Shown here piece after piece: positions 1,419 through 8,560 of a stretch of 22,196 bases of DNA. The translations under genes and the position numbers were made by a program. Source of the stretch: a virus (taxonomy: Duplodnaviria; Heunggongvirae; Uroviricota; Caudoviricetes); the IMG/VR virus record IMGVR_UViG_2703718769_000014. The stretch is one strand, 5' to 3'. The notes under the pieces were generated by a model. The model was not told the origin of the DNA, ran no database searches, and saw only the letters and a program-made list of their open reading frames with translations. The first letter of the stretch is position 1. Each line of letters starts with the position of its first letter.

Positions 1419-2489
1419 TTATTTGATTTCAATTTTGTCCCACTCCCTGCCTCTGTCATCACGATACTGTGATGCCATGGTGTCCGACTTATGCCCGAGA
1501 AGATGTTGAGCAAATTTATCGCTTATCTGCTTCTCATAGAGTCTTGCAGACAAACTGCGCAACTCGTGAAAGGTTGGCGGATCCCCTTCGAAGGAGAGAC
1601 CTGATGCTTTTCGTGCGCGCATAAAATACCTTGATACTGTGCCGGATGAAAGCGGTTCACGACGAGTAGATGCAATTATGGTTTCTCCGCCAAGAATCTT
1701 TTTGCATTTATCAAGTGTTTCCTTCATTGATATCCCGAGAGCATCAACATGCAATGTTGTTGGGATGGCAATTTTTACGCCTGTTTTGCTTTGCTCGACA
1801 TAAAGATATCCATCTACGATATCAGACCACTTCATTTCGCATAAATCACCAACTCGCTGCCCGGTAACAACAGCCAGTTCCATTGCAAGTCTAAGCCAAC
1901 ATGGTGATGATTCTGCTGCTTGATAAATTTTCAGGTATTCGTCAGCCGTAAGTCTTGATCTCCTTACCTCTGATTTTGCAGCGCGAGTGGCTGCGACCGG
2001 GTTTGTTGTTATATGGCCTTCAGCCATAGCCTCTCGGAATGCATCGCTCAGTGTTGATCTGATTAACTTGGCTGATGCCGCCTTTCCCTCGTCTATGTAT
2101 CCATTGAGCATTGCCGCAATTTCTTTTGTGGTGATGTCTTCAAGTGGAGCATCAGGCAGACCCCTCCTTATTGCTTTAATTTTGCTCATGTAATTTATGA
2201 GTGTCTTCTGCTTGATTCCTCTGCTGGCCAGGATTTTTTCGTAGCGATCAAGCCATGAATGTAACGTAACGGAATTATCACTGTTGATTCTCGCTGTCAG
2301 AGGCTTGTGTTTGTGTCCTGAAAATAACTCAATGTTGGCCTGTATAGCTTCAGTGATTGCGATTCGCCTGTCTCGGCCTAATCCAAACTCTTTACCCGTC
2401 CTTGGGTCCCTGTAGCAGTAATATCCATTGTTTCTTATATAAAGGTTAGGGGGTAAATCCCGGCGCTCATGACTTCGCCTTCTTCCCAT
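1419..2489 (-). CDS. int: Lambda-type tyrosine integrase Int
   Basis: 356-aa ORF essentially matching recalled lambda Int (MGRRRSHERRDLPPNLYIRNNGYYCYRDPRTGKEF... ending ...DDRGREWDKIEIK); placed immediately inside attL, 3' end overlapping xis. Confidence 0.97.
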   Translation of the reverse strand: MGRRRSHERRDLPPNLYIRNNGYYCYRDPRTGKEFGLGRDRRIAITEAIQANIELFSGHKHKPLTARINSDNSVTLHSWLDRYEKILASRGIKQKTLINYMSKIKAIRRGLPDAPLEDITTKEIAAMLNGYIDEGKAASAKLIRSTLSDAFREAMAEGHITTNPVAATRAAKSEVRRSRLTADEYLKIYQAAESSPCWLRLAMELAVVTGQRVGDLCEMKWSDIVDGYLYVEQSKTGVKIAIPTTLHVDALGISMKETLDKCKKILGGETIIASTRREPLSSGTVSRYFMRARKASGLSFEGDPPTFHELRSLSARLYEKQISDKFAQHLLGHKSDTMASQYRDDRGREWDKIEIK

Positions 2490-2685
2490 TTCTGATCCTC
2501 TTCAAAAGGCTACCTGTTACTGGTCGATTTAAGTCAACCTTTACCGCTGATTCGTGGAACAGATATTCTCTTCCATCCTTAACCGGAGGAGGGAATATCC
2601 TGCATTCGCGCACCCATCGACGAACTGTTTCAAGGCTTCTTGGGCGTCGCTGGCGAGCGTTCCACTCCTGAAGTGTCAAGTACAT
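2467..2685 (-). CDS. xis: Lambda-type excisionase Xis
   Basis: 72-aa ORF (MYLTLQEWNARQRRPRSLETVRRWVRECRIFPPPVKDGREYLFHESAVKVDLNRP...) matching lambda Xis; overlaps the int start as in lambda. Confidence 0.95.
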   Translation of the reverse strand: MYLTLQEWNARQRRPRSLETVRRWVRECRIFPPPVKDGREYLFHESAVKVDLNRPVTGSLLKRIRNGKKAKS

Positions 2686-2710
2686 CGCAAAGTCTCCGCA
2701 ATTACACGCA

Positions 2711-2734
2711 AGAAAAAACCGCCATCAGGCGGCT
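2711..2734 (-). terminator. Rho-independent terminator for leftward transcription between the 55-aa ORF and xis
   Basis: On the minus strand: GC stem CCGCC/GGCGG with 4-nt loop followed by a T6 run (AAGCCGCCTGATGGCGGTTTTTTCTT). The stop codon of the upstream small ORF lies in the loop. Confidence 0.6.
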
Positions 2735-2892
2735 TGGTGTTCTTTCAGTTCTTCAATTCGAATATTGGTTATGTCTGCATGTGCTATCTGCGCCCATATC
2801 ATCCAGTGGTCATAGCAGTCATTGATGTTCTCTGCTTCGATAACTCTGTTGAATGGTTCTCCATTCCATTCACCTGTGACTCGGAAGTGCAT
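2725..2892 (-). CDS. Small hypothetical protein, 55 aa, exo-xis region (below the ORF-track length cutoff)
   Basis: ATG at 2892, translation MHFRVTGEWNGEPFNRVIEAENINDCYDHWMIWAQIAHADITNIRIEELKEHQAA, stop inside the terminator hairpin. Same strand and position as the small ORF next to xis in lambda. Confidence 0.5.
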   Translation of the reverse strand: MHFRVTGEWNGEPFNRVIEAENINDCYDHWMIWAQIAHADITNIRIEELKEHQAA

Positions 2893-2974
2893 TTATCATC
2901 TCCATAAAACAAAACTCGCCGTAGCGAGTTCAGATATAATTTCCACCAAAGGCAGTAGTTGCTGATGCTAAGAA

Positions 2975-3403
2975 TTATTCAATATCTATTCCTGTAATAT
3001 CTTTTATCTTTTTCCTTGCAAAGCCTTTTGCTAGTGATTTTGAAACACTTATTAGTGTACTAATTCCCTCATCCTTAAAGTTTGTTTTTATAGTTTGCCA
3101 GACCTCCTTTTGACGCAAGTCAGCAATAAAATCATGCCCTCTTGCTGTCAACCTCAGTGGTACTTCGATCCAACTATATCCAACACCTTCCCCTAACTCG
3201 TTGGACATTATATGACCGAACCCAGGTTTTCCATCAACCCTGACTATTAATTCGTAGTCGCATAATAATCGCATATGGAAAATAAAATTTTGGTCATATC
3301 TATTAAAGCCATTATCCTCTAGTTCACTAAGCATCGTGTCAGGGCCATGAGTTTTTTCGAATGCGATAAGTAGATCTTTTAGATATTGCTGGTCTAATTT
3401 CAT
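2975..3403 (-). CDS. Hypothetical cytoplasmic protein, 142 aa, exo-xis cargo, no family recognised
   Basis: Clean ORF with GGAGG Shine-Dalgarno 6-10 nt upstream of the ATG at 3403; AT-rich compared with the lambda-like flanks; no signal peptide. Confidence 0.6.
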   Translation of the reverse strand: MKLDQQYLKDLLIAFEKTHGPDTMLSELEDNGFNRYDQNFIFHMRLLCDYELIVRVDGKPGFGHIMSNELGEGVGYSWIEVPLRLTARGHDFIADLRQKEVWQTIKTNFKDEGISTLISVSKSLAKGFARKKIKDITGIDIE

Positions 3404-3650
3404 TGCCGCCTCCGTGACATGTCACAGAGATTTATATCATTAATTTTGTTTCGTGCCAGCCTTTGGTCACCCAGCATTGTGAGTCACCATTACACGGGCA
3501 TGAATTAACAGGAACTCTCTCGCCGCACTTACCGCAACGTTTTCTGCTGATCGATTTTATACGTCAGCGCACACGTGCATCATCCTGGCGGCTCAGTAAC
3601 GCGATGTACTCACCAAACTCGTAAGGCGCATGCCTGAAGCGGCGCGTGGC

Positions 3651-3770
3651 TCAGTTACGATCCAGCATTTCAATTTCCTGAGCATCAAGTACAAGCTCCA
3701 GCTTACGCATACCGGATGATGCTTGCTTGGCTCTCTGATCGACTTTGCGCTCTGCTGATGATTTAGCCAT
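3651..3770 (-). CDS. Possible small basic protein, 39 aa (MAKSSAERKVDQRAKQASSGMRKLELVLDAQEIEMLDRN); speculative
   Basis: ATG at 3770 with a weak AGGA upstream; charged, helical-looking composition; sits between the two cargo genes on the same strand. Confidence 0.25.
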   Translation of the reverse strand: MAKSSAERKVDQRAKQASSGMRKLELVLDAQEIEMLDRN

Positions 3771-3965
3771 TCTGCTTTTCCTGCATTAGGAGAAAGACAA
3801 TCATGGCGGCGCGGATACTTCCGGTATCTTTTTACTCGATATTACCCTTCAATGGCACATACAAGAAGAGAGCCATCAACAGGAGTGAGTGAGGAATCGA
3901 CAACCAGCAACGCTTAATTATCTATAGTGTCGTATTTGCTTCATAAAATATGGCGAATAACACAA

Positions 3966-3998
3966 AGCCCGCAGCAGCTCATTGTGCGGGCTTTTCTT
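3966..3998. terminator. Terminator-like hairpin: 8-bp stem AGCCCGCA/TGCGGGCT, 11-nt loop, then TTTTCTT
   Basis: Inverted repeat seen directly, lying 66 nt beyond the 3' end of the 204-aa gene. U-rich on the plus strand and partly T-rich on the minus strand, so possibly bidirectional. Confidence 0.5.
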
Positions 3999-4063
3999 AT
4001 ACATACTTCCTAGAGATAATTCTATGGAGGCATTAAATTAATACTGTCATTGGTAATATCATA

Positions 4064-4678
4064 TTATCTAAAAGTCTTTCCACTTTTAACGTCTAGGTAT
4101 ATTCTGTTCGACAACGTCATTCCTCCGCAATATGTGAAATAGATGTTTTTCCCCTTATTGCTTGATGCCATCCACCCTCCGATTTCCTTAAAGTCGCTTT
4201 CCGTGCAGACCCCTTCGTTTATTAACTTCCTAGCTGCCGAAGAAAACTCTTTTTTGTATATACGGTAGTCATCAGATCCTTTGATTAAAGTATCATCTCC
4301 GCTCGCATTTTCAGCAGGATCTGATGGCCTTTCACTGCTAAGATCACTAAGTTTAACCCATTCTGAAAACTTGCCATTGACGATTCCGTTTTTTCTTGTG
4401 CAGGATTTATTACCTTCTTTAATATATTCGCTTTCCCCTCCCACACATGAGGCTGAATATGGCTCAGTTATACGAACCCATTCACCTTTTTTTTCTAGAA
4501 AATCTACGCCTTCCCTGAAAAATAGTTTCCCAGCCACTCCACATTTACTTGAAGGGCAGGTATGTCTTTCCGTTCGATCAACAACAACCCAAAGTCTTGA
4601 TTCATTTTTTGCCATTGCCGATGGTATTTGAGATGAGACAATTAACGTAAGCCCTAAAATTAGTATTGATTTTTTCAT
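4064..4678 (-). CDS. Secreted or periplasmic cysteine-rich hypothetical protein, 204 aa, exo-xis cargo
   Basis: N-terminal signal peptide MKKSILILGLTLIVSSQIPSAMA (predicted cleavage after AMA), seven Cys in the mature part, AT-rich codon usage, no recognisable lambda homolog. Confidence 0.6.
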   Translation of the reverse strand: MKKSILILGLTLIVSSQIPSAMAKNESRLWVVVDRTERHTCPSSKCGVAGKLFFREGVDFLEKKGEWVRITEPYSASCVGGESEYIKEGNKSCTRKNGIVNGKFSEWVKLSDLSSERPSDPAENASGDDTLIKGSDDYRIYKKEFSSAARKLINEGVCTESDFKEIGGWMASSNKGKNIYFTYCGGMTLSNRIYLDVKSGKTFR

Positions 4679-4976
4679 TGTAATTTCCTTTTACTTTTTA
4701 CAAAGCGTTTAATCATGGCTGATTATCTTTAAGCGTAGTAACAGCCTTGTGCGAAACATGTTACCAAATCGCCATTTCAGTGTATCCGCAGTTAGGCTGC
4801 CACTTCAAGGATTCCTAATTACATGGTACGTAAGCGTAAAATCCCGTTGGTTGTCGGGTAATAACTCTGATCAAATCTCCCTTGTCTTTTGCTCTTACGT
4901 ATGCAGCTCTTGTGTATTCAACCCAGGCCTCCAGTTCAGCAATACGCTTACTTCCATCCGAGATAACACCTTCTAC

Positions 4977-5228
4977 TCACGCTGCTCGTTGAGTTTTGAT
5001 TTTTGCTGTCTCCAGCTCAACACGCAGTTTCCTCACCGTTAGCGCAATATCCTCGTTCTCCTGGTCGCGGCGTTTGATGTACTGCTGGTTTCTTTCCCGT
5101 TCATCCAGCAGTGTCAGCACAATCGATGGTGTTACCAGCTCATGGAAAAGGTCCGCGTCAAATCCCCAGTTGTCATGCATTGCCTGCTCTGCCGCTTCAC
5201 GCAGTGCCTGAGAGTGAATTACGCTCAC
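4977..5228 (-). CDS. Exo-xis region protein, 83 aa; the reading frame continues for 53 further codons past an in-frame TGA down to 4818
   Basis: ORF translationally coupled to the upstream TraR-like gene (ATGA overlap at 5225-5228). The frame stays open from 4976 down to a TAG at 4815-4817, see findings. Confidence 0.5.
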   Translation of the reverse strand: MSVIHSQALREAAEQAMHDNWGFDADLFHELVTPSIVLTLLDERERNQQYIKRRDQENEDIALTVRKLRVELETAKIKTQRAA

Positions 5229-5446
5229 TTCGAACCTCTCTGTTTACTGATAAGTTCCAGATCCTCCTGGCAACTTGCACAAGTCCGACAACCCTGAACG
5301 GCCAGGCGTCTTCGTTCATCTATCGGATCGCCACACTCACAACAATGAGTGGCAGATATAGCCTGGTGGTTCAGGCGGCGCATTTTTATTGCTGTGTTGC
5401 GCTGTAATTCTTCAATTTCTGATGCTGAATCAATGATGTCTGCCAT
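5225..5446 (-). CDS. TraR/DksA-family C4 zinc-finger protein, 73 aa (lambda orf73-like)
   Basis: Translation has CxxC-x17-CxxC (C35/C38 and C56/C59) in a 73-aa protein, the size and motif of the phage/plasmid TraR family; position matches orf73 of the lambda exo-xis region. Confidence 0.8.
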   Translation of the reverse strand: MADIIDSASEIEELQRNTAIKMRRLNHQAISATHCCECGDPIDERRRLAVQGCRTCASCQEDLELISKQRGSK

Positions 5447-5544
5447 CTTTCATTAATCCCTGAATTGTTGGTTAATACGCTTGAGGGTGAATGCGAATAA
5501 TAAAAAAGGAGCCTGTAGCTCCCTGATGATTTTGCTTTTCATGT

Positions 5545-5826
5545 TCACCGTTCCTTAAAAACGCCGTTTAACATGCCGATTGCTAGACTTAAATGAGTCG
5601 GTGTGAATCCCATCAGCGTTACCGTTTCGCGGTGCTTCTTCAGTACGCTACGGCAAATGTCATCGACGTTTTTATCCGGAAACTGCTGTCTGGCTTTTTT
5701 GATTTCAGAATTAGCCTGACGGGCAATGCTGCGAAGGGCGTTTTCCTGCTGAGGTGTCACTGAACAAGCCCCATGTCGGCAAGCATAAGCACACAGAATA
5801 TGAAGCCCGCTGCCAGAAAAATGCAT
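5545..5826 (-). CDS. Exo-xis region hypothetical protein (93 aa as listed; more likely 71 aa from the GTG at 5760)
   Basis: C-terminal 70 residues look like a real helical protein (TPQQENALRSIARQANSEIKKARQQF...); the N-terminal 22 codons overlap a hydrophobic 27-codon ORF in another frame, so the start is ambiguous. Confidence 0.5.
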   Translation of the reverse strand: MHFSGSGLHILCAYACRHGACSVTPQQENALRSIARQANSEIKKARQQFPDKNVDDICRSVLKKHRETVTLMGFTPTHLSLAIGMLNGVFKER

Positions 5827-5840
5827 TCAGTGGTTGTCAT
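5757..5840 (-). CDS. Possible 27-aa hydrophobic peptide (MTTTECIFLAAGFIFCVLMLADMGLVQ)
   Basis: ATG at 5840 overlaps the stop of the upstream 63-aa ORF (ATGA); its TGA overlaps an in-frame GTG of the downstream ORF (GTGA). Looks like a single transmembrane helix. Confidence 0.3.
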   Translation of the reverse strand: MTTTECIFLAAGFIFCVLMLADMGLVQ

Positions 5841-6028
5841 ACCTGGTCTCTCTCATCTGCTTCTGCTTTCGCCACCATCATTTCCAGTTTTTGTGAAAGG
5901 GATGTGGCTAACGTATGAAATTCTTCGTCTGTTTCTACTGGTATTGGCACAAACCTGATTCCAATTTGAGCAAGGCTATGTGCCATCTCGATACTCGTTC
6001 TTAACTCAACAGGAGATGCTTTGTGCAT
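5837..6028 (-). CDS. Exo-xis region small protein, 63 aa (orf63-like by size and position)
   Basis: 63-aa ORF overlapping the upstream 60-aa ORF by 28 nt, as I recall for lambda orf60a/orf63. Confidence 0.6.
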   Translation of the reverse strand: MHKASPVELRTSIEMAHSLAQIGIRFVPIPVETDEEFHTLATSLSQKLEMMVAKAEADERDQV

Positions 6029-6183
6029 ACAGCCCCTCGTTTATTATTTATCTCCTCAGCCAGCCGCTGTGCTTTCAGTGGATTTCGGATAACAGAAAGG
6101 CCGGGAAATACCCAGCCTCGCTTTGTAACGGAGTAGACGAAAGTGATTGCGCCTACCCGGATATTATCGTGAGGATGCGTCAT
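6001..6183 (-). CDS. Exo-xis region small protein, 60 aa (orf60a-like by size and position)
   Basis: ATG at 6183 gives a 60-aa product whose start overlaps the exo stop by 4 nt (ATGA); the ORF track lists the same frame from an upstream ATG (6189). Confidence 0.5.
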
Positions 6184-6821
6184 CGCCATTGCTCCCCAAA
6201 TACAAAACCAATTTCAGCCAGTGCCTCGTCCATTTTTTCGATGAACACCGGCACCATCTCGTCAAAACTCGCCATGTACTTTTCATCCCGCTCAACCACG
6301 ACATAATGCAGTCCTTCACGCTTCATACGCGGGTCATAGTTGGCAAAGTACCAGGCATCTTTTCGTGTCACCCACATGCTGTACTGCACCTGGGCCATGT
6401 AAGCCGACTTTATGGCCTCGAAACCACCGAGCCGGAACTTCATGAAATCCCGGGAGGTAAACGGGCATTTCAGCTCAAGGCCATTGCCGTCACTGCATAA
6501 ACCATCGGGAGAGCAGGCGGTGCGCATACTTTCGTCGCGATAGATGATCGGGGATTCAGTAACATTCACGCCGGAAGTGAATTCAAACAGGGTTCTGGCG
6601 TCGTTCTCGTACTGTTTTCCCCATGCCAGCGCCTTAGCATTAACTTCCGGAGCCACACCGGTGCAAACCTCAGCCAGCAGGGTGTGGAAGTAGGACATTT
6701 TCATGTCAGGCCACTTCTTTCCTGAGCGGGGCTTGGCTATCACGTTGTGAACTTCTGAAGCGGTGATGACGCCGAGCCGTAATTTGTGCCATGCATCATC
6801 CCCCTGTTCGACAGCTCTCAC
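6180..6821 (-). pseudogene. exo: Lambda exonuclease (Exo/RedX) lacking about 13 N-terminal codons; 5' end is a deletion junction
   Basis: Translation matches lambda Exo from [27 protein letters not shown] to the C-terminus GFVFGEQWR. There is no ATG; the frame opens at a GTG and an upstream stop. bet is absent and a ren fragment follows. Confidence 0.85.
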
Positions 6822-6841
6822 GTCGATCCCGGTAACGCAGA

Positions 6842-6973
6842 TCGGATGATTACCGGTTCGCTACCAGGGAAGAACGGGAAGGAAAGGTGAGCACGAATCT
6901 GATTTTCAAGGAGTGTCGCCAGAGTGCCGCGATGAAGCGGATGTTGGCATTTTATCGCGGCAATTTTCAATAG
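6842..6973 (+). pseudogene. ren: ren 3' fragment (C-terminal about 43 codons)
   Basis: Plus-strand frame reads ...[41 protein letters not shown], matching the recalled lambda Ren C-terminus ([30 protein letters not shown]...); no start codon or N-terminal part. Confidence 0.75.
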
Positions 6974-7010
6974 ACTATGTACATAAAAATATCATTTTTT
7001 TAATACATGT

Positions 7011-7217
7011 CTAATTATTGGACGAAATTGGTTTTTGCTTTGGTTTAGTTAGCCTAGCAATCAAGCCAGAGGCAATAATGATGATCCAAGCAATTTGATG
7101 CAATGCTACTCCAATATAAGAACCTTTATAGATAATAAAGGCATAGATCGCTAGAAACGAAATAAATATCCATAACGAAAGTTGATAAATTTTGGCGCGC
7201 ATATTTAATCCAATCAA
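7011..7217 (-). CDS. Small integral membrane protein (two predicted transmembrane helices), 62-68 aa
   Basis: Two hydrophobic helices (LSLWIFISFLAIYAFIIY and IAWIIIIASGLIA) and a basic C-terminal tail; AT-rich; divergent from the lipoprotein operon. Confidence 0.4.
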   Translation of the reverse strand: MIGLNMRAKIYQLSLWIFISFLAIYAFIIYKGSYIGVALHQIAWIIIIASGLIARLTKPKQKPISSNN

Positions 7218-7458
7218 TCAGAAAGACGAGTAATCATAGAGGTACTATCACCCGGGTAACTATTGCTATTATGAACGGATAGGATAGAGGCTTCAATAAC
7301 ATATGCATCAAGTATGATGGAATATGTAGGTGAAAATGACTTGTGTCAAATTTGTGGAAATGAGTACCATGTTTCTCTGAAATTGATGTCGTTAATGGCT
7401 AGTGATAGTGAACTTTTTTACTTTATAATTCCTTTGGTTATAACAATAAGGTAAATTT

Positions 7459-8019
7459 ATGAAGAAGATAATATTATTAGCCATGATTATTGGTTCTTTA
7501 ACAGGTTGCGCTAGTGTGCCACCATTGAATTTTTCAACACCTAACGTGGGAGTTAGCCAGAAAAAAATAGATGCTGAAATTAAGTCATTAACGGTATCAC
7601 TTGCTCGTCCAGATGAGCAGAAAGGGGATATCACTGCTGGTATGGAGGCTATAACTCCAATTTGGCGTGAATCTTTGCAGGAAGCACTCGACCGAATGAC
7701 TATTTTTCGTGATAGTTCACCAAATACGGTTAGCTTAAATGTTAAAGTGTTGGCTCTTGACGTTCCTGCTTTTGGTGTTTCAATGACAACTAAAGCAATT
7801 GCAAGGTATGAAATAATCAACCGTGCGAATGGTGATATTATATATACGCAGGATATTGAGTCTACCGGTACTGTTCCAGCCAGTTACGCATTCTACGGTA
7901 TTGTTCGAGCACGCGAATCTGTTAATCGCGCGGTGCAAAACAACATAACGCAGTTCTTGCAAGCATTAGAAAGTGTTGATCTTTCTCGTCCAATGTTTCC
8001 TGTTAGGGTAGCTAAATGA
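7459..8019 (+). CDS. Outer-membrane lipoprotein, 186 aa, unknown function
   Basis: Signal peptide with lipobox LTGC (Cys17, +2 residue Ala); Shine-Dalgarno-like AAGG upstream; stop overlaps the start of the next gene (ATGA at 8016-8019). Confidence 0.75.
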   Translation: MKKIILLAMIIGSLTGCASVPPLNFSTPNVGVSQKKIDAEIKSLTVSLARPDEQKGDITAGMEAITPIWRESLQEALDRMTIFRDSSPNTVSLNVKVLALDVPAFGVSMTTKAIARYEIINRANGDIIYTQDIESTGTVPASYAFYGIVRARESVNRAVQNNITQFLQALESVDLSRPMFPVRVAK

Positions 8020-8468
8020 AGCGATTATTCGTAATTGCTCCACTCTTAGTGTTGGTTGGATGCGCACAAAATATATCGCCAAATAGTTATTCTGTTGGCT
8101 CTGTGGGCATGGTTAATCGAACTATCGCTGGTACAGTTATTAGTGCTAGGGGGGTTGATATCAGTGGGACTTCCGCGTTAGGCGGGACTGCTGGGGCTGC
8201 CGTGGGGGCAACCGCTGGTTCTGCGCTTGGTGGGGGAGTTCGTTCTAATATCGTTGGTGCCGTTGGTGGTGCAGTCATTGGTGGTATTGCCGGGGCAGCA
8301 ATCGAATCTTCAGCAACAAAACAAACAGGCATGGAATATGTTGTCGAAACTGAGAATGGGAATTTAATGACCATTGTTCAAGGCAAAGATCCGTTATTTA
8401 CTCAAGGAAGTAAGGTCCTTGTTTTATACGGAAACCCTTCTCGCATAATAACAGACCCGCGTCACTAA
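8016..8468 (+). CDS. SlyB-like glycine-zipper outer-membrane lipoprotein, 150 aa
   Basis: Lipobox LVGC; long GxxxG zipper (GGTAGAAVGATAGSALGGG...GAVGGAVIGGIAGAAIE); C-terminal segment MEYVVETENGNLMTIVQGKD...VLVLYGNPSRI resembles the recalled SlyB C-terminus (ELEIRKDDGNTIMVVQKQG...VVLASNGSQV). Confidence 0.75.
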   Translation: MKRLFVIAPLLVLVGCAQNISPNSYSVGSVGMVNRTIAGTVISARGVDISGTSALGGTAGAAVGATAGSALGGGVRSNIVGAVGGAVIGGIAGAAIESSATKQTGMEYVVETENGNLMTIVQGKDPLFTQGSKVLVLYGNPSRIITDPRH

Positions 8469-8560
8469 CATACCTTTTGATTTTGTAAAATCAATTCGTA
8501 ATAATAAAGTCATCGGAGCTTGAACAACTCCGGTGACTTCTGCGCTAAACGGGGACGTTT

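Follow-up and report, generated by a model that had tools for sequence, protein, structure and literature searches.

We analysed a 22,196-nucleotide stretch of viral DNA, here called the window. It contains two intact open reading frames of 142 and 204 amino acids (ORF142 and ORF204) on the minus strand, co-oriented with int, xis and exo. The initial annotation read them as accessory cargo of the exo-xis hotspot in the lambda ea8.5 slot, and the flanking genes agree. On one side is a 55-aa Orf55 homologue (phrog_676, E 1.7e-39) with the residues W9, N43, R45 and E47 named for lambda Orf55 (PMC8614690); on the other, the 73-aa TraR/DksA ORF at 5225–5446 fits orf73 as described in the same paper (PMC8614690). 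The features of the region are as follows.

2725–2892, minus strand: lambda orf55 homologue, 55 aa; backbone gene on the xis-side flank
2893–2939, minus strand: conserved lambdoid intergenic stretch of the backbone; left edge of the cargo patch
2975–3403, minus strand: ORF142, 142 aa; DUF2513 protein with a predicted winged helix and a C-terminal helical extension
3432–3770, minus strand: gp20-like pseudogene, 112 codons, related to the phiV10/TL-2011b 'transcriptional regulator' (phrog_536); Cys-rich C-terminal half
3771–3828, minus strand: 3′-end remnant of a NinX/DUF2591-family gene, which precedes gp20 in phiV10-like phages
3803–3913, minus strand: internal fragment of a umuD-like gene, codons 46–82 of 129, with one in-frame stop
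3914–4856, minus strand: ORF204 cassette, 943 bp; presence/absence segment comprising ORF204 with its upstream region and terminator
about 3955–3995, minus strand: intrinsic-terminator-like hairpin with U-tract, about 70 nt 3′ of the ORF204 stop codon
4064–4678, minus strand: ORF204, 204 aa; predicted exported two-domain protein (signal peptide about 1–23, SH3b about 28–110, C-terminal domain about 118–204)
4818–5228, minus strand: ea22-like gene, dead; an in-frame TGA (4977–4979) separates its 83 first codons from 53 further ones

Boundaries and gene remnants

The insert had been given the limits 2893–4700. Its edges lie instead at about 2940 and 4926, and backbone homology resumes at about 4927–4930. 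The first 44–48 nt of the query are common to many lambdoid prophages without the block; a terminator-like hairpin is found at 2912–2931 (−12.1 kcal/mol, z = −3.2). The description of the block as AT-rich suits ORF142 (36.1% GC) and ORF204 (39.2%) but not the middle part (3432–3913), which at 49% is backbone-like.

This middle part, previously called intergenic, is pseudogene debris: the gp20-like gene and the umuD-like fragment. The 39-aa ORF reported there (3651–3770) is present and corresponds to the first 39 codons of the gp20-like pseudogene, which has in-frame TGA triplets at codons 40 (3651–3653) and 68 (3564–3566) and is labelled 'internal stop' in RefSeq. All 112 codons align with TL-2011b gp20 at 84% protein identity (tblastn). 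At the DNA level, homology of 89–90% to phiV10-like phages reaches 3810–3828, under their NinX/DUF2591/ASCH genes. In epsilon15-like phages, gp20 of the phiV10/TL-2011b type lies upstream of the small terminase gene; the copy here differs in its two nonsense codons and in having moved to the lambdoid early-left region, off the terminase genes. Phage Chlobot and strain 0H25 have the gp20-like gene intact. A match of intact gp20 to the NCBIfam LexA regulated protein was sub-threshold (14 bits versus 62) and was rejected.

The umuD-like fragment is 89% identical to the PhiR41_1 UmuD-like protein (tblastn) and is labelled 'DNA repair protein, incomplete' in RefSeq; codons 1–82 are kept in a related prophage, L110. 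The third dead gene sits between ORF204 and orf73. Its ORF at 4977–5228 matches Pfam Ead_Ea22 (E 9.3e-20) and its parts match two separate ea22-like ORFs in L110; judged from these alignments, it is a deletion-fusion of two ea22-like genes.

ORF142, a DUF2513 protein

The two intact ORFs had been described as belonging to no recognisable family. This stands for the C-terminal domain of ORF204 but not for its N-terminal part, an SH3b domain, nor for ORF142, which belongs to DUF2513. The remote-homology and structure comparison suggested by the initial annotation pointed the same way, with a winged helix for ORF142 and an SH3b fold for ORF204.

ORF142 has a ribosome-binding site (GGAGG) 6 nt 5′ of its start. 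It matches Pfam DUF2513 (PF10711) with 42.9 bits (cut-off 29.6) over residues 2–115 and profile positions 1–100 of 100, and all of its close homologues carry PF10711. NCBIfam has no match for ORF142, and a PDB sequence search with the DUF2513 profile returned a single chance match (E = 2). In the literature, DUF2513 is mentioned only in an unrelated context and the RefSeq protein accessions are uncited.

The structural model of ORF142 is a three-helix bundle with a beta-hairpin wing, the winged-helix arrangement of MarR/PadR-like proteins. This fold suggests DNA binding by DUF2513, and ORF142 probably binds DNA as a winged-helix dimer. Where the phage is intact, as in Chlobot, the protein would be produced with the early-left (pL) transcript. 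Phages carrying DUF2513 in different genomic slots have an almost unchanged presumed recognition helix, FxFHMRLL, which argues for a common target, probably host-side, and against an operator specific to one phage. Comparisons of some E. coli lineages give ORF142 a pN/pS as high as 0.7–0.8, from small counts.

The non-conserved exo-xis proteins encoded between ea22 and xis are lambda Ea8.5, Orf55 and phi24B Gp05 (PMC8614690). Homology of both ORFs to ea-type genes, named beforehand as evidence against a special role, was not found: ORF142 is unlike Ea8.5 and Ea22, with no similarity to either, and neither ORF142 nor ORF204 matched Ead_Ea22 or any other ea-type family. A tblastn search of 50,697 phage records with ORF142 matched three records with no Stx phage among them, so ORF142 is not a detectable homologue of phi24B Gp05.

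The ORF204 cassette and its protein

Three prophage loci (L084, L109 and L110) match window positions 2709–3913 at 96–97% identity and keep DUF2513 but lack the cassette, resuming in ea22-like sequence past its site. The exact breakpoints are 3913/3914 and 4856/4857. The cassette has 38.5% GC versus about 49% in the flanking backbone. The terminator hairpin noted earlier is downstream of ORF204 and carries a U-tract; it folds at −18.8 kcal/mol (z = −3.0), and 3 of 200 shuffled sequences fold equally well. A sub-threshold Rfam Thr_leader match at 3957–4050 (21 bits versus 55, E 0.75) reflects this hairpin. Upstream of ORF204, no minus-strand sigma-70-like site with at least 9 of 12 matches was found; the best promoter candidate from direct reading is TTGAAG-18-TACACT (4808–4779), with 8 of 12 positions.

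Morons are autonomous extra genes of lambdoid phages, for example lambda bor and lom; the concept reportedly came from comparison of the HK97 and HK022 genomes. The ORF204 cassette has three of the four moron features tested: prophages that are otherwise almost the same differ in having or lacking it as one discrete segment, its base composition is distinct and it has its own terminator. Its product is also a predicted exported envelope protein. As differences, no convincing promoter of its own was found, and the cassette lies in the early-left exo-xis region, not the late region. Unlike Bor, ORF204 has no lipobox.

A ribosome-binding site (AAGGA) lies 5′ of ORF204. In line with the signal peptide proposed earlier, the N-terminus is signal-peptide-like, with MKK, a hydrophobic core and then AMA-K, and the protein is probably exported by Sec with cleavage after AMA. 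The first Cys is residue 41, away from the AMA-K end of the signal peptide, although some distant homologues do have lipoboxes. ORF142 carries no export signal, in line with the original division into one exported and one cytoplasmic product. We count six Cys in ORF204 (41, 46, 78, 93, 158 and 184) rather than the seven first given. Four are in the SH3b domain, while C158 and C184 are invariant and lie in the C-terminal domain; three disulfides are the natural reading of these six conserved residues.

ORF204 itself scores below the cut-off of the SH3_3 profile (PF08239; 16.1 bits versus 27, E 0.013), but 27 of its 42 longer relatives match at E ≤ 0.001 (best 1.6e-14) and its predicted fold has the SH3b beta-barrel topology. 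Bacterial SH3b wall-binding domains (Pfam SH3_3) include the targeting domains of lysostaphin, endolysins and NlpC/P60 proteins, and the fold suggests that this one too may bind peptidoglycan. It differs from them in a Cys-containing insertion (C78–C93) that is absent from the most distant relatives. ORF204 also differs from SH3b-hydrolase proteins in having no hydrolase domain, with an uncharacterised domain of about 85 aa in its place.

This C-terminal domain is predicted to have two helices and three strands. It has no match in Pfam, NCBIfam or PDB, nor does ORF204 as a whole match NCBIfam. De novo designed TIM barrels retrieved from PDB with the domain profile were a repeat-summing artefact, each stretch alone having E of about 15–30. 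The domain is found in more than 500 protein clusters (50% identity); in some proteins it stands by itself after a signal peptide or lipobox, and in the 27 relatives above it follows SH3_3. Its motifs are SDD[YF], GGW.KS, YFTYCGG and NRIYL, with one conserved Cys pair. Besides the two invariant Cys, conservation falls on Ser, Asp, Trp, Asn, Tyr, Phe and Gly residues but on no His or Glu, from which we infer that a binding surface is likelier than a catalytic site. ORF204 appears to be under purifying selection (pN/pS 0.10–0.19): its differences are 8–10 synonymous versus 3–7 non-synonymous, where neutrality predicts about 30–37. On the modelled domains, the SH3b part would tether ORF204 to peptidoglycan and the C-terminal part would be a binding or inhibitor module acting on an envelope target. 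ORF204 may thus be a stand-alone lysogenic-conversion or envelope-protection factor.

Distribution and origin of the block

The two genes co-occur in about 131 E. coli genomes, all with one block at 95–100% identity, so that this co-occurrence reflects shared descent of a single recombinant block. In E. coli ATCC 8739 their locus tags are ECOLC_RS15475 (DUF2513) and ECOLC_RS26170 (ORF204). Both are also intact in the isolated phage Chlobot. The initial annotation had paired an exported Cys-rich factor with a cytoplasmic partner and called for a neighbourhood survey in other prophages; in the loci examined outside the E. coli block the two never occur together. In 39 divergent viral-contig loci, no homologue of ORF204 lies at up to 4 kb from DUF2513, and DUF2513 is likewise missing from the surroundings of 11 loci with ORF204 homologues, which come from six contexts other than that block.

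DUF2513 is also found alone in nin regions, beside integrases and between lysis and terminase genes; an apparent stand-alone copy in strain FDAARGOS_1077 is really an IS1-mediated deletion of the same block. ORF204 homologues are found in Pseudomonas islands beside integrases, in an Aeromonas prophage, among IS elements, in a core-gene setting and in metagenomic contexts. They share no neighbour family: among 126 flanking proteins from 32 species, none recurs in more than three. A PHROG scan of the genes adjoining the Pseudomonas and Aeromonas homologues was uninformative. No PADLOC defence model matched any of five proteins scanned at E ≤ 1, and Pfam and NCBIfam place neither ORF in a family of toxins or immunity proteins.

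DUF2513 does have a recurrent neighbour. Of the 39 divergent viral loci, 16 carry a gp20-like gene upstream of it, and in 10 of these a small terminase gene lies downstream. In Cronobacter epsilon15-like prophages the order is gp20-like gene, DUF2513 and small terminase gene, with the first two directly adjacent, and the window shows the same order of gp20-like gene and DUF2513. We set aside a toxin-antitoxin reading of these two genes because each is found without the other: gp20 in TL-2011b and phiV10, DUF2513 in 23 of the 39 loci.

We consider it probable that recombination pieced together window positions 2940–4926 from two independent acquisitions, that this patchwork occupies the ea8.5/ea22 slot of a cryptic lambdoid prophage at att-lambda (ybhC to ybhB), and that ORF142 and ORF204 do not work as a pair. 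The first acquisition would be a segment that lay immediately upstream of the terminase genes in an epsilon15/phiV10-like phage. It would have brought the tail of the NinX-family gene, the gp20-like gene (dead here) and the intact DUF2513 gene, fused to a truncated umuD-like gene. The second would be the AT-rich 943-bp cassette with ORF204 and its own terminator, which would have taken the place of umuD-like codons 1–45 and of the 3′ end of an ea22-like gene. We infer this order from extant variants only. Counting against this reading, pL, N and cI are deleted in the window, so expression of the cargo here is only putative.

Three other explanations were weighed. One, which we regard as unlikely, is that ORF204 acts by itself at the envelope as a defence or exclusion factor, tethered to peptidoglycan by its SH3b domain. 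Its C-terminal domain would block lysozymes, T6SS effectors or the wall hydrolases that superinfecting phages carry, by analogy with T4 Spackle or periplasmic lysozyme inhibitors. The export signal, the fold of cell-wall-binding type, the moron-like cassette, the purifying selection and, by our reading, the conserved residues are consistent with this, as is carriage across genera by integrases, prophages and IS-rich regions. Yet no known inhibitor or defence protein is similar in sequence or fold, and many homologues are ordinary chromosomal genes of environmental bacteria with no mobile context.

Another explanation, improbable in our view, is that neither ORF has a function in E. coli and that both are passengers left over in a recombination scar in decay, not yet hit by stop codons. 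The prophage is cryptic, three neighbours (gp20-like, umuD-like and ea22-like) are dead, IS1 insertions and deletions have hit the block in several strains, and ORF142 has a pN/pS of 0.6–0.8 in some comparisons. At 2–3% divergence the lack of stops alone is not significant. However, the excess of synonymous changes in ORF204 departs from neutrality, conservation across genera is strong in both families (14 and 17 invariant columns), all four lineages compared have the two genes intact while adjacent genes decayed independently, and both are kept in Chlobot, a viable phage.

The weakest explanation, a two-gene superinfection-exclusion or toxin-immunity module of a periplasmic Cys-rich effector and a cytoplasmic partner, would fit two co-oriented genes 660 bp apart that are found together in E. 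coli and Chlobot with one exported product, but it is highly improbable and already largely refuted by the distribution. Two pseudogenes and a terminator separate these unlinked accessory genes, and near-identical prophages keep DUF2513 without the cassette.

Overall, the block is ordinary mosaic cargo in a known variable exo-xis slot of a lambda-like prophage, and its only modestly interesting part is the C-terminal domain of ORF204. We would give a small chance to its being an undescribed extracytoplasmic effector or inhibitor domain, spread by prophages and integrase-borne islands, usually SH3b-tethered, that protects or remodels the wall of its carrier. If so, it could, for example, block the three kinds of target proposed above, and ORF204 would provide, from a single gene, a defence or lysogenic-conversion function of a new kind at the envelope. 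Two leads follow: this uncurated, widespread periplasmic domain, alone or behind SH3b, on a moron-like cassette; and the recurrent gp20-like and DUF2513 arrangement upstream of terminase genes in epsilon15-like phages. Neither alters current understanding unless a phenotype is found. The result is mainly clarifying: what looked in the raw sequence like a cargo pair splits into two acquisitions, three dead genes and one 943-bp cassette, and this patchwork documents the turnover of the exo-xis slot.

Prophage setting and composition of the block

The window is an E. coli chromosomal segment; strain FDAARGOS_1248 is 100% identical over the queried interval 2893-4700 and is annotated with the same ORF order. 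A cryptic lambdoid prophage lies at att-lambda, between ybhC (1-1284) and ybhB. Its relevant features are:

1419-2489, minus strand: int
2467-2685, minus strand: xis
2725-2892, minus strand: 55-aa ORF with W9, N43, R45 and E47 of lambda Orf55
2975-3403, minus strand: ORF142
3432-3770: gp20-like pseudogene, 112 codons with TGA at codons 40 and 68 (translation and tblastn, 84% identity to TL-2011b gp20)
3803-3913: umuD-like fragment, encoding residues 46-82 of a UmuD-like protein (129 aa, P1/D6-type phages), one in-frame stop (translation and tblastn)
4064-4678, minus strand: ORF204
4818-5228, minus strand: ea22-like gene, 136-codon frame with a single in-frame TGA (4977-4979); Ead/Ea22-like ORF at 4977-5228
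5225-5446, minus strand: 73-aa TraR/DksA zinc-finger ORF, after the Ead/Ea22-like ORF in minus-strand order
minus strand, after the 73-aa ORF in minus-strand order: DUF1382, DUF1317, exo

According to PMC8614690, lambda has ea8.5 and orf55 between ea22 and xis; the residues named for its Orf55 are W9, N43, R45 and E47, and Orf73 is described as TraR-like. Given this layout and the Orf55 residues in the 55-aa ORF, the block occupies the lambda ea8.5 slot, where the initial annotation had placed it. At 6180-6973, exo directly abuts a partial ren gene on the opposite strand, and bet, gam, kil, cIII, N, cI, cro, O, P and the pL promoter are missing. The prophage is a cryptic remnant, and with these losses the early-left genes, including ORF142 and ORF204, have lost their native promoter here.

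The description of the block in that annotation was right in part. Both ORFs are present in AT-rich DNA (ORF142 36.1% GC, ORF204 39.2% GC), and the terminator hairpin is real (-18.8 kcal/mol, z = -3.0, followed by a U-tract, ~70 nt past the ORF204 stop codon). At 49% GC, the stretch between them (3432-3913) does not differ from the backbone; in composition the block is thus a sandwich and not uniformly AT-rich.

Elsewhere in the prophage, 7000-8500, from the ren fragment to ybcN, is very AT-rich (33-37% GC) and looks like another cargo insertion. Two lipoprotein genes overlap on its plus strand, 7459-8019 (186 aa, lipobox LTGC, without Pfam match) and 8016-8468 (150 aa, lipobox LVGC, weak sub-threshold glycine-zipper match), and a hydrophobic 68-aa ORF lies at 7011-7217 (minus strand).

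Neighbourhoods of the two ORFs

The proposal that ORF142 and ORF204 form a paired cytoplasmic and periplasmic module is not supported. ORF142 is a member of Pfam DUF2513 (42.9 bits, cut-off 29.6) and of phrog_585, with 113 homologous clusters across Enterobacterales. We defined divergent DUF2513 as <89% identity; none of the 39 such viral loci has an ORF204 homologue within 4 kb. A gp20-like gene ends ~30 bp upstream of DUF2513 in 16 of them, and a Cronobacter-type small terminase gene lies downstream in 10. The settings vary. In Cronobacter epsilon15-like prophages DUF2513 directly follows the gp20-like gene and precedes the small terminase gene; elsewhere it lies between lysis and terminase genes (Klebsiella phage ST846-OXA48phi9.2), in the nin region (Citrobacter and Serratia prophages) or near the integrase (other Serratia prophages). 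Among IMG/VR loci L015-L018 and L118-L148, the gp20-like gene before DUF2513, whose C-terminal half is Cys-rich, shows gp20 identities down to 47%; gp20-like plus DUF2513 may form a pre-terminase cassette conserved in epsilon15-like phages.

ORF204 homologues likewise keep other company. Some adjoin integrases in small Pseudomonas islands, and an Aeromonas prophage has its homologue after the Q antiterminator gene and ahead of the lysis genes, or the reverse, flanked by both; others are surrounded by IS elements, or have metW and pheST as neighbours in a core-gene setting. DUF2513 was found near none of these. The 126 flanking proteins from 32 species (Pseudomonadota, Acidobacteriota, Campylobacterota) share no common family, the most frequent being the phage integrase family, in 3. 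PADLOC matched neither ORF. In two Pseudomonas lineages (L005, L006, L020-L022), a 62-69% identical homologue comes first after a tyrosine integrase, followed by syntenic ORFs without family match (~208-236, 105-108, 130 and 336 aa), in what looks like a small integrative element.

Both genes co-occur in 131 of the 5,426 complete E. coli genomes and, across 50,697 phage records, in phage Chlobot only. These occurrences are a single block, at 95-100% identity, that has been inherited as a unit.

Gene debris and the ORF204 cassette

The region between the ORFs, previously read as intergenic with a possible 39-aa ORF, is gene debris. That ORF is the first 39 codons of the dead gp20-like gene and matches phrog_34005 and phrog_536, the latter being the family of TL-2011b gp20, a phiV10-type "transcriptional regulator". 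In RefSeq this region holds a pseudogene with an internal stop plus a "DNA repair protein" marked incomplete. Homology to phiV10-like phage DNA (89-90%) starts at 3439 and stops at 3810-3828, within the final part of the NinX/DUF2591-family gene, which lies before gp20 in such phages.

Among four block lineages, the gp20-like gene is intact in Chlobot and strain 0H25; strain SZQ1 has one stop plus G79R and C98Y in the Cys-rich C-terminal half, and the window has two stops. ORF142 and ORF204 are intact in all four. The ea22-like gene, labelled frameshifted by RefSeq, is a deletion-fusion: locus L110 has the two ea22-like genes as separate ORFs. Its stops in SZQ1 differ from the one in the window, so decay was independent. 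At 5541-6019 the Chlobot record (L002, PP925838) has two products, a 'transcriptional regulator' of 46 aa and a 'UmuD-like protein' of 105 aa. The latter reads out of frame across the gp20-like gene, an intact 112-codon ORF by translation, and the annotation appears wrong.

Four of the 41 IMG/VR loci with E. coli-type DUF2513 (L084, L109-L111, all with full upstream flank) are without ORF204. In BLAST, the window matches L084, L109 and L110 at 96-97% identity over 2709-3913, and the alignment breaks off exactly at 3913. It picks up again within ea22-like genes, at 4857-4925 and 4929-5001 in L109 and L110 and at ~5000 in L084. The break at 3913 and restart from 4857 delimit a discrete 943-bp cassette, 3914-4856 (38.5% GC). 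In its place, L109 and L110 carry a 1,080-bp segment with the 3' end of an ea22-like gene (221 aa) and codons 1-45 of the umuD-like gene.

IS1 copies recur at or inside the block in several strains (locus L001; matches H3, H41, H58, H73, H74): just upstream of ORF204 in ATCC 8739 (L001 7899-8596), inside ORF204 matches, and, in FDAARGOS_1077, in association with a deletion that removed all sequence beyond DUF2513. The label plasmid-borne is attached to eleven ORF204 matches. One 43,337-bp circular 'plasmid' (L009, NZ_CP174001) carries integrase, excisionase, exo, bet, gam and tail-fibre genes and so may be a circular phage genome. A 303-kb 'plasmid' (L010, NZ_CP081691) has genes annotated dps and trkG, which are K-12 chromosomal genes, and may therefore have arisen by misassembly or by capture of a large piece of chromosome.

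The patch records at least two events. In one, a segment with the NinX tail, gp20-like gene and DUF2513 was captured from an epsilon15/phiV10-like phage and joined to a truncated umuD-like gene. In the other, the ORF204 cassette replaced adjacent ea22 and umuD sequence.

Properties of the two proteins

Conservation in the ORF142 family is strongest at FxFHMRLL, taken to be in the presumed recognition helix, and PLRLTxxGHDF. Between block lineages its pN/pS is less clear-cut than that of ORF204, at 0.22-0.77 on counts of 3-11; the gene is conserved in the wider family, but selection on it may be relaxed within the block. ORF142 is probably a dimeric winged-helix DNA-binding accessory protein, and in intact phages would be co-expressed with the early-left operon.

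ORF204 begins with MKK, SILILGLTLIVSS and QIPSAMA|K, a predicted Sec signal of the standard type, which lacks a lipobox and would be cleaved at the AxA site. The export signal noted initially is present; the cysteine count is six, not seven. In several distant homologues a lipobox occupies the corresponding position, which makes an extracytoplasmic location a conserved trait of the family. ORF204 belongs to phrog_8310 and has 82 homologous clusters; no whole-protein family was found in Pfam or NCBIfam. The nearest homologues outside Escherichia are 204-aa Pseudomonas and Aeromonas proteins (60-69% identity). No sigma-70-like site with at least 9/12 matches was found upstream. Block lineages differ by 8-10 synonymous and 3-7 non-synonymous changes, and a pN/pS of 0.10-0.19 indicates purifying selection.

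The AF2 model (pLDDT 90.5, low confidence confined to the first ~20 residues) has two domains. Residues ~118-204 form a short helical turn, two main helices and three strands. A profile of this C-terminal domain, searched against 1.84 billion proteins, found 534 representative clusters (403 at E <= 1e-10), and the domain is C-terminal in nearly all of the matches listed. In proteins of ~100-135 aa it stands by itself after a signal peptide or lipobox. Of 42 longer members, 27 have SH3_3 in front of it, and some of the longer members carry N-terminal zinc-ribbon extensions. No counterpart was found in Pfam, NCBIfam or PDB; de novo TIM-barrel PDB matches were rejected as repeat artefacts. C158 and C184 are invariant; conservation otherwise falls on Ser, Asp, Trp, Asn, Tyr, Phe and Gly, and on no His or Glu. 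Given this pattern, the domain is more probably a binder than a catalyst. ORF204 would be exported by Sec to the periplasm, be tethered there to peptidoglycan, and act alone as a moron-type envelope factor.

The block is ordinary mosaic cargo in a known hotspot. Nothing else in it offers discovery potential; the sole element with some is the uncurated C-terminal domain of ORF204.
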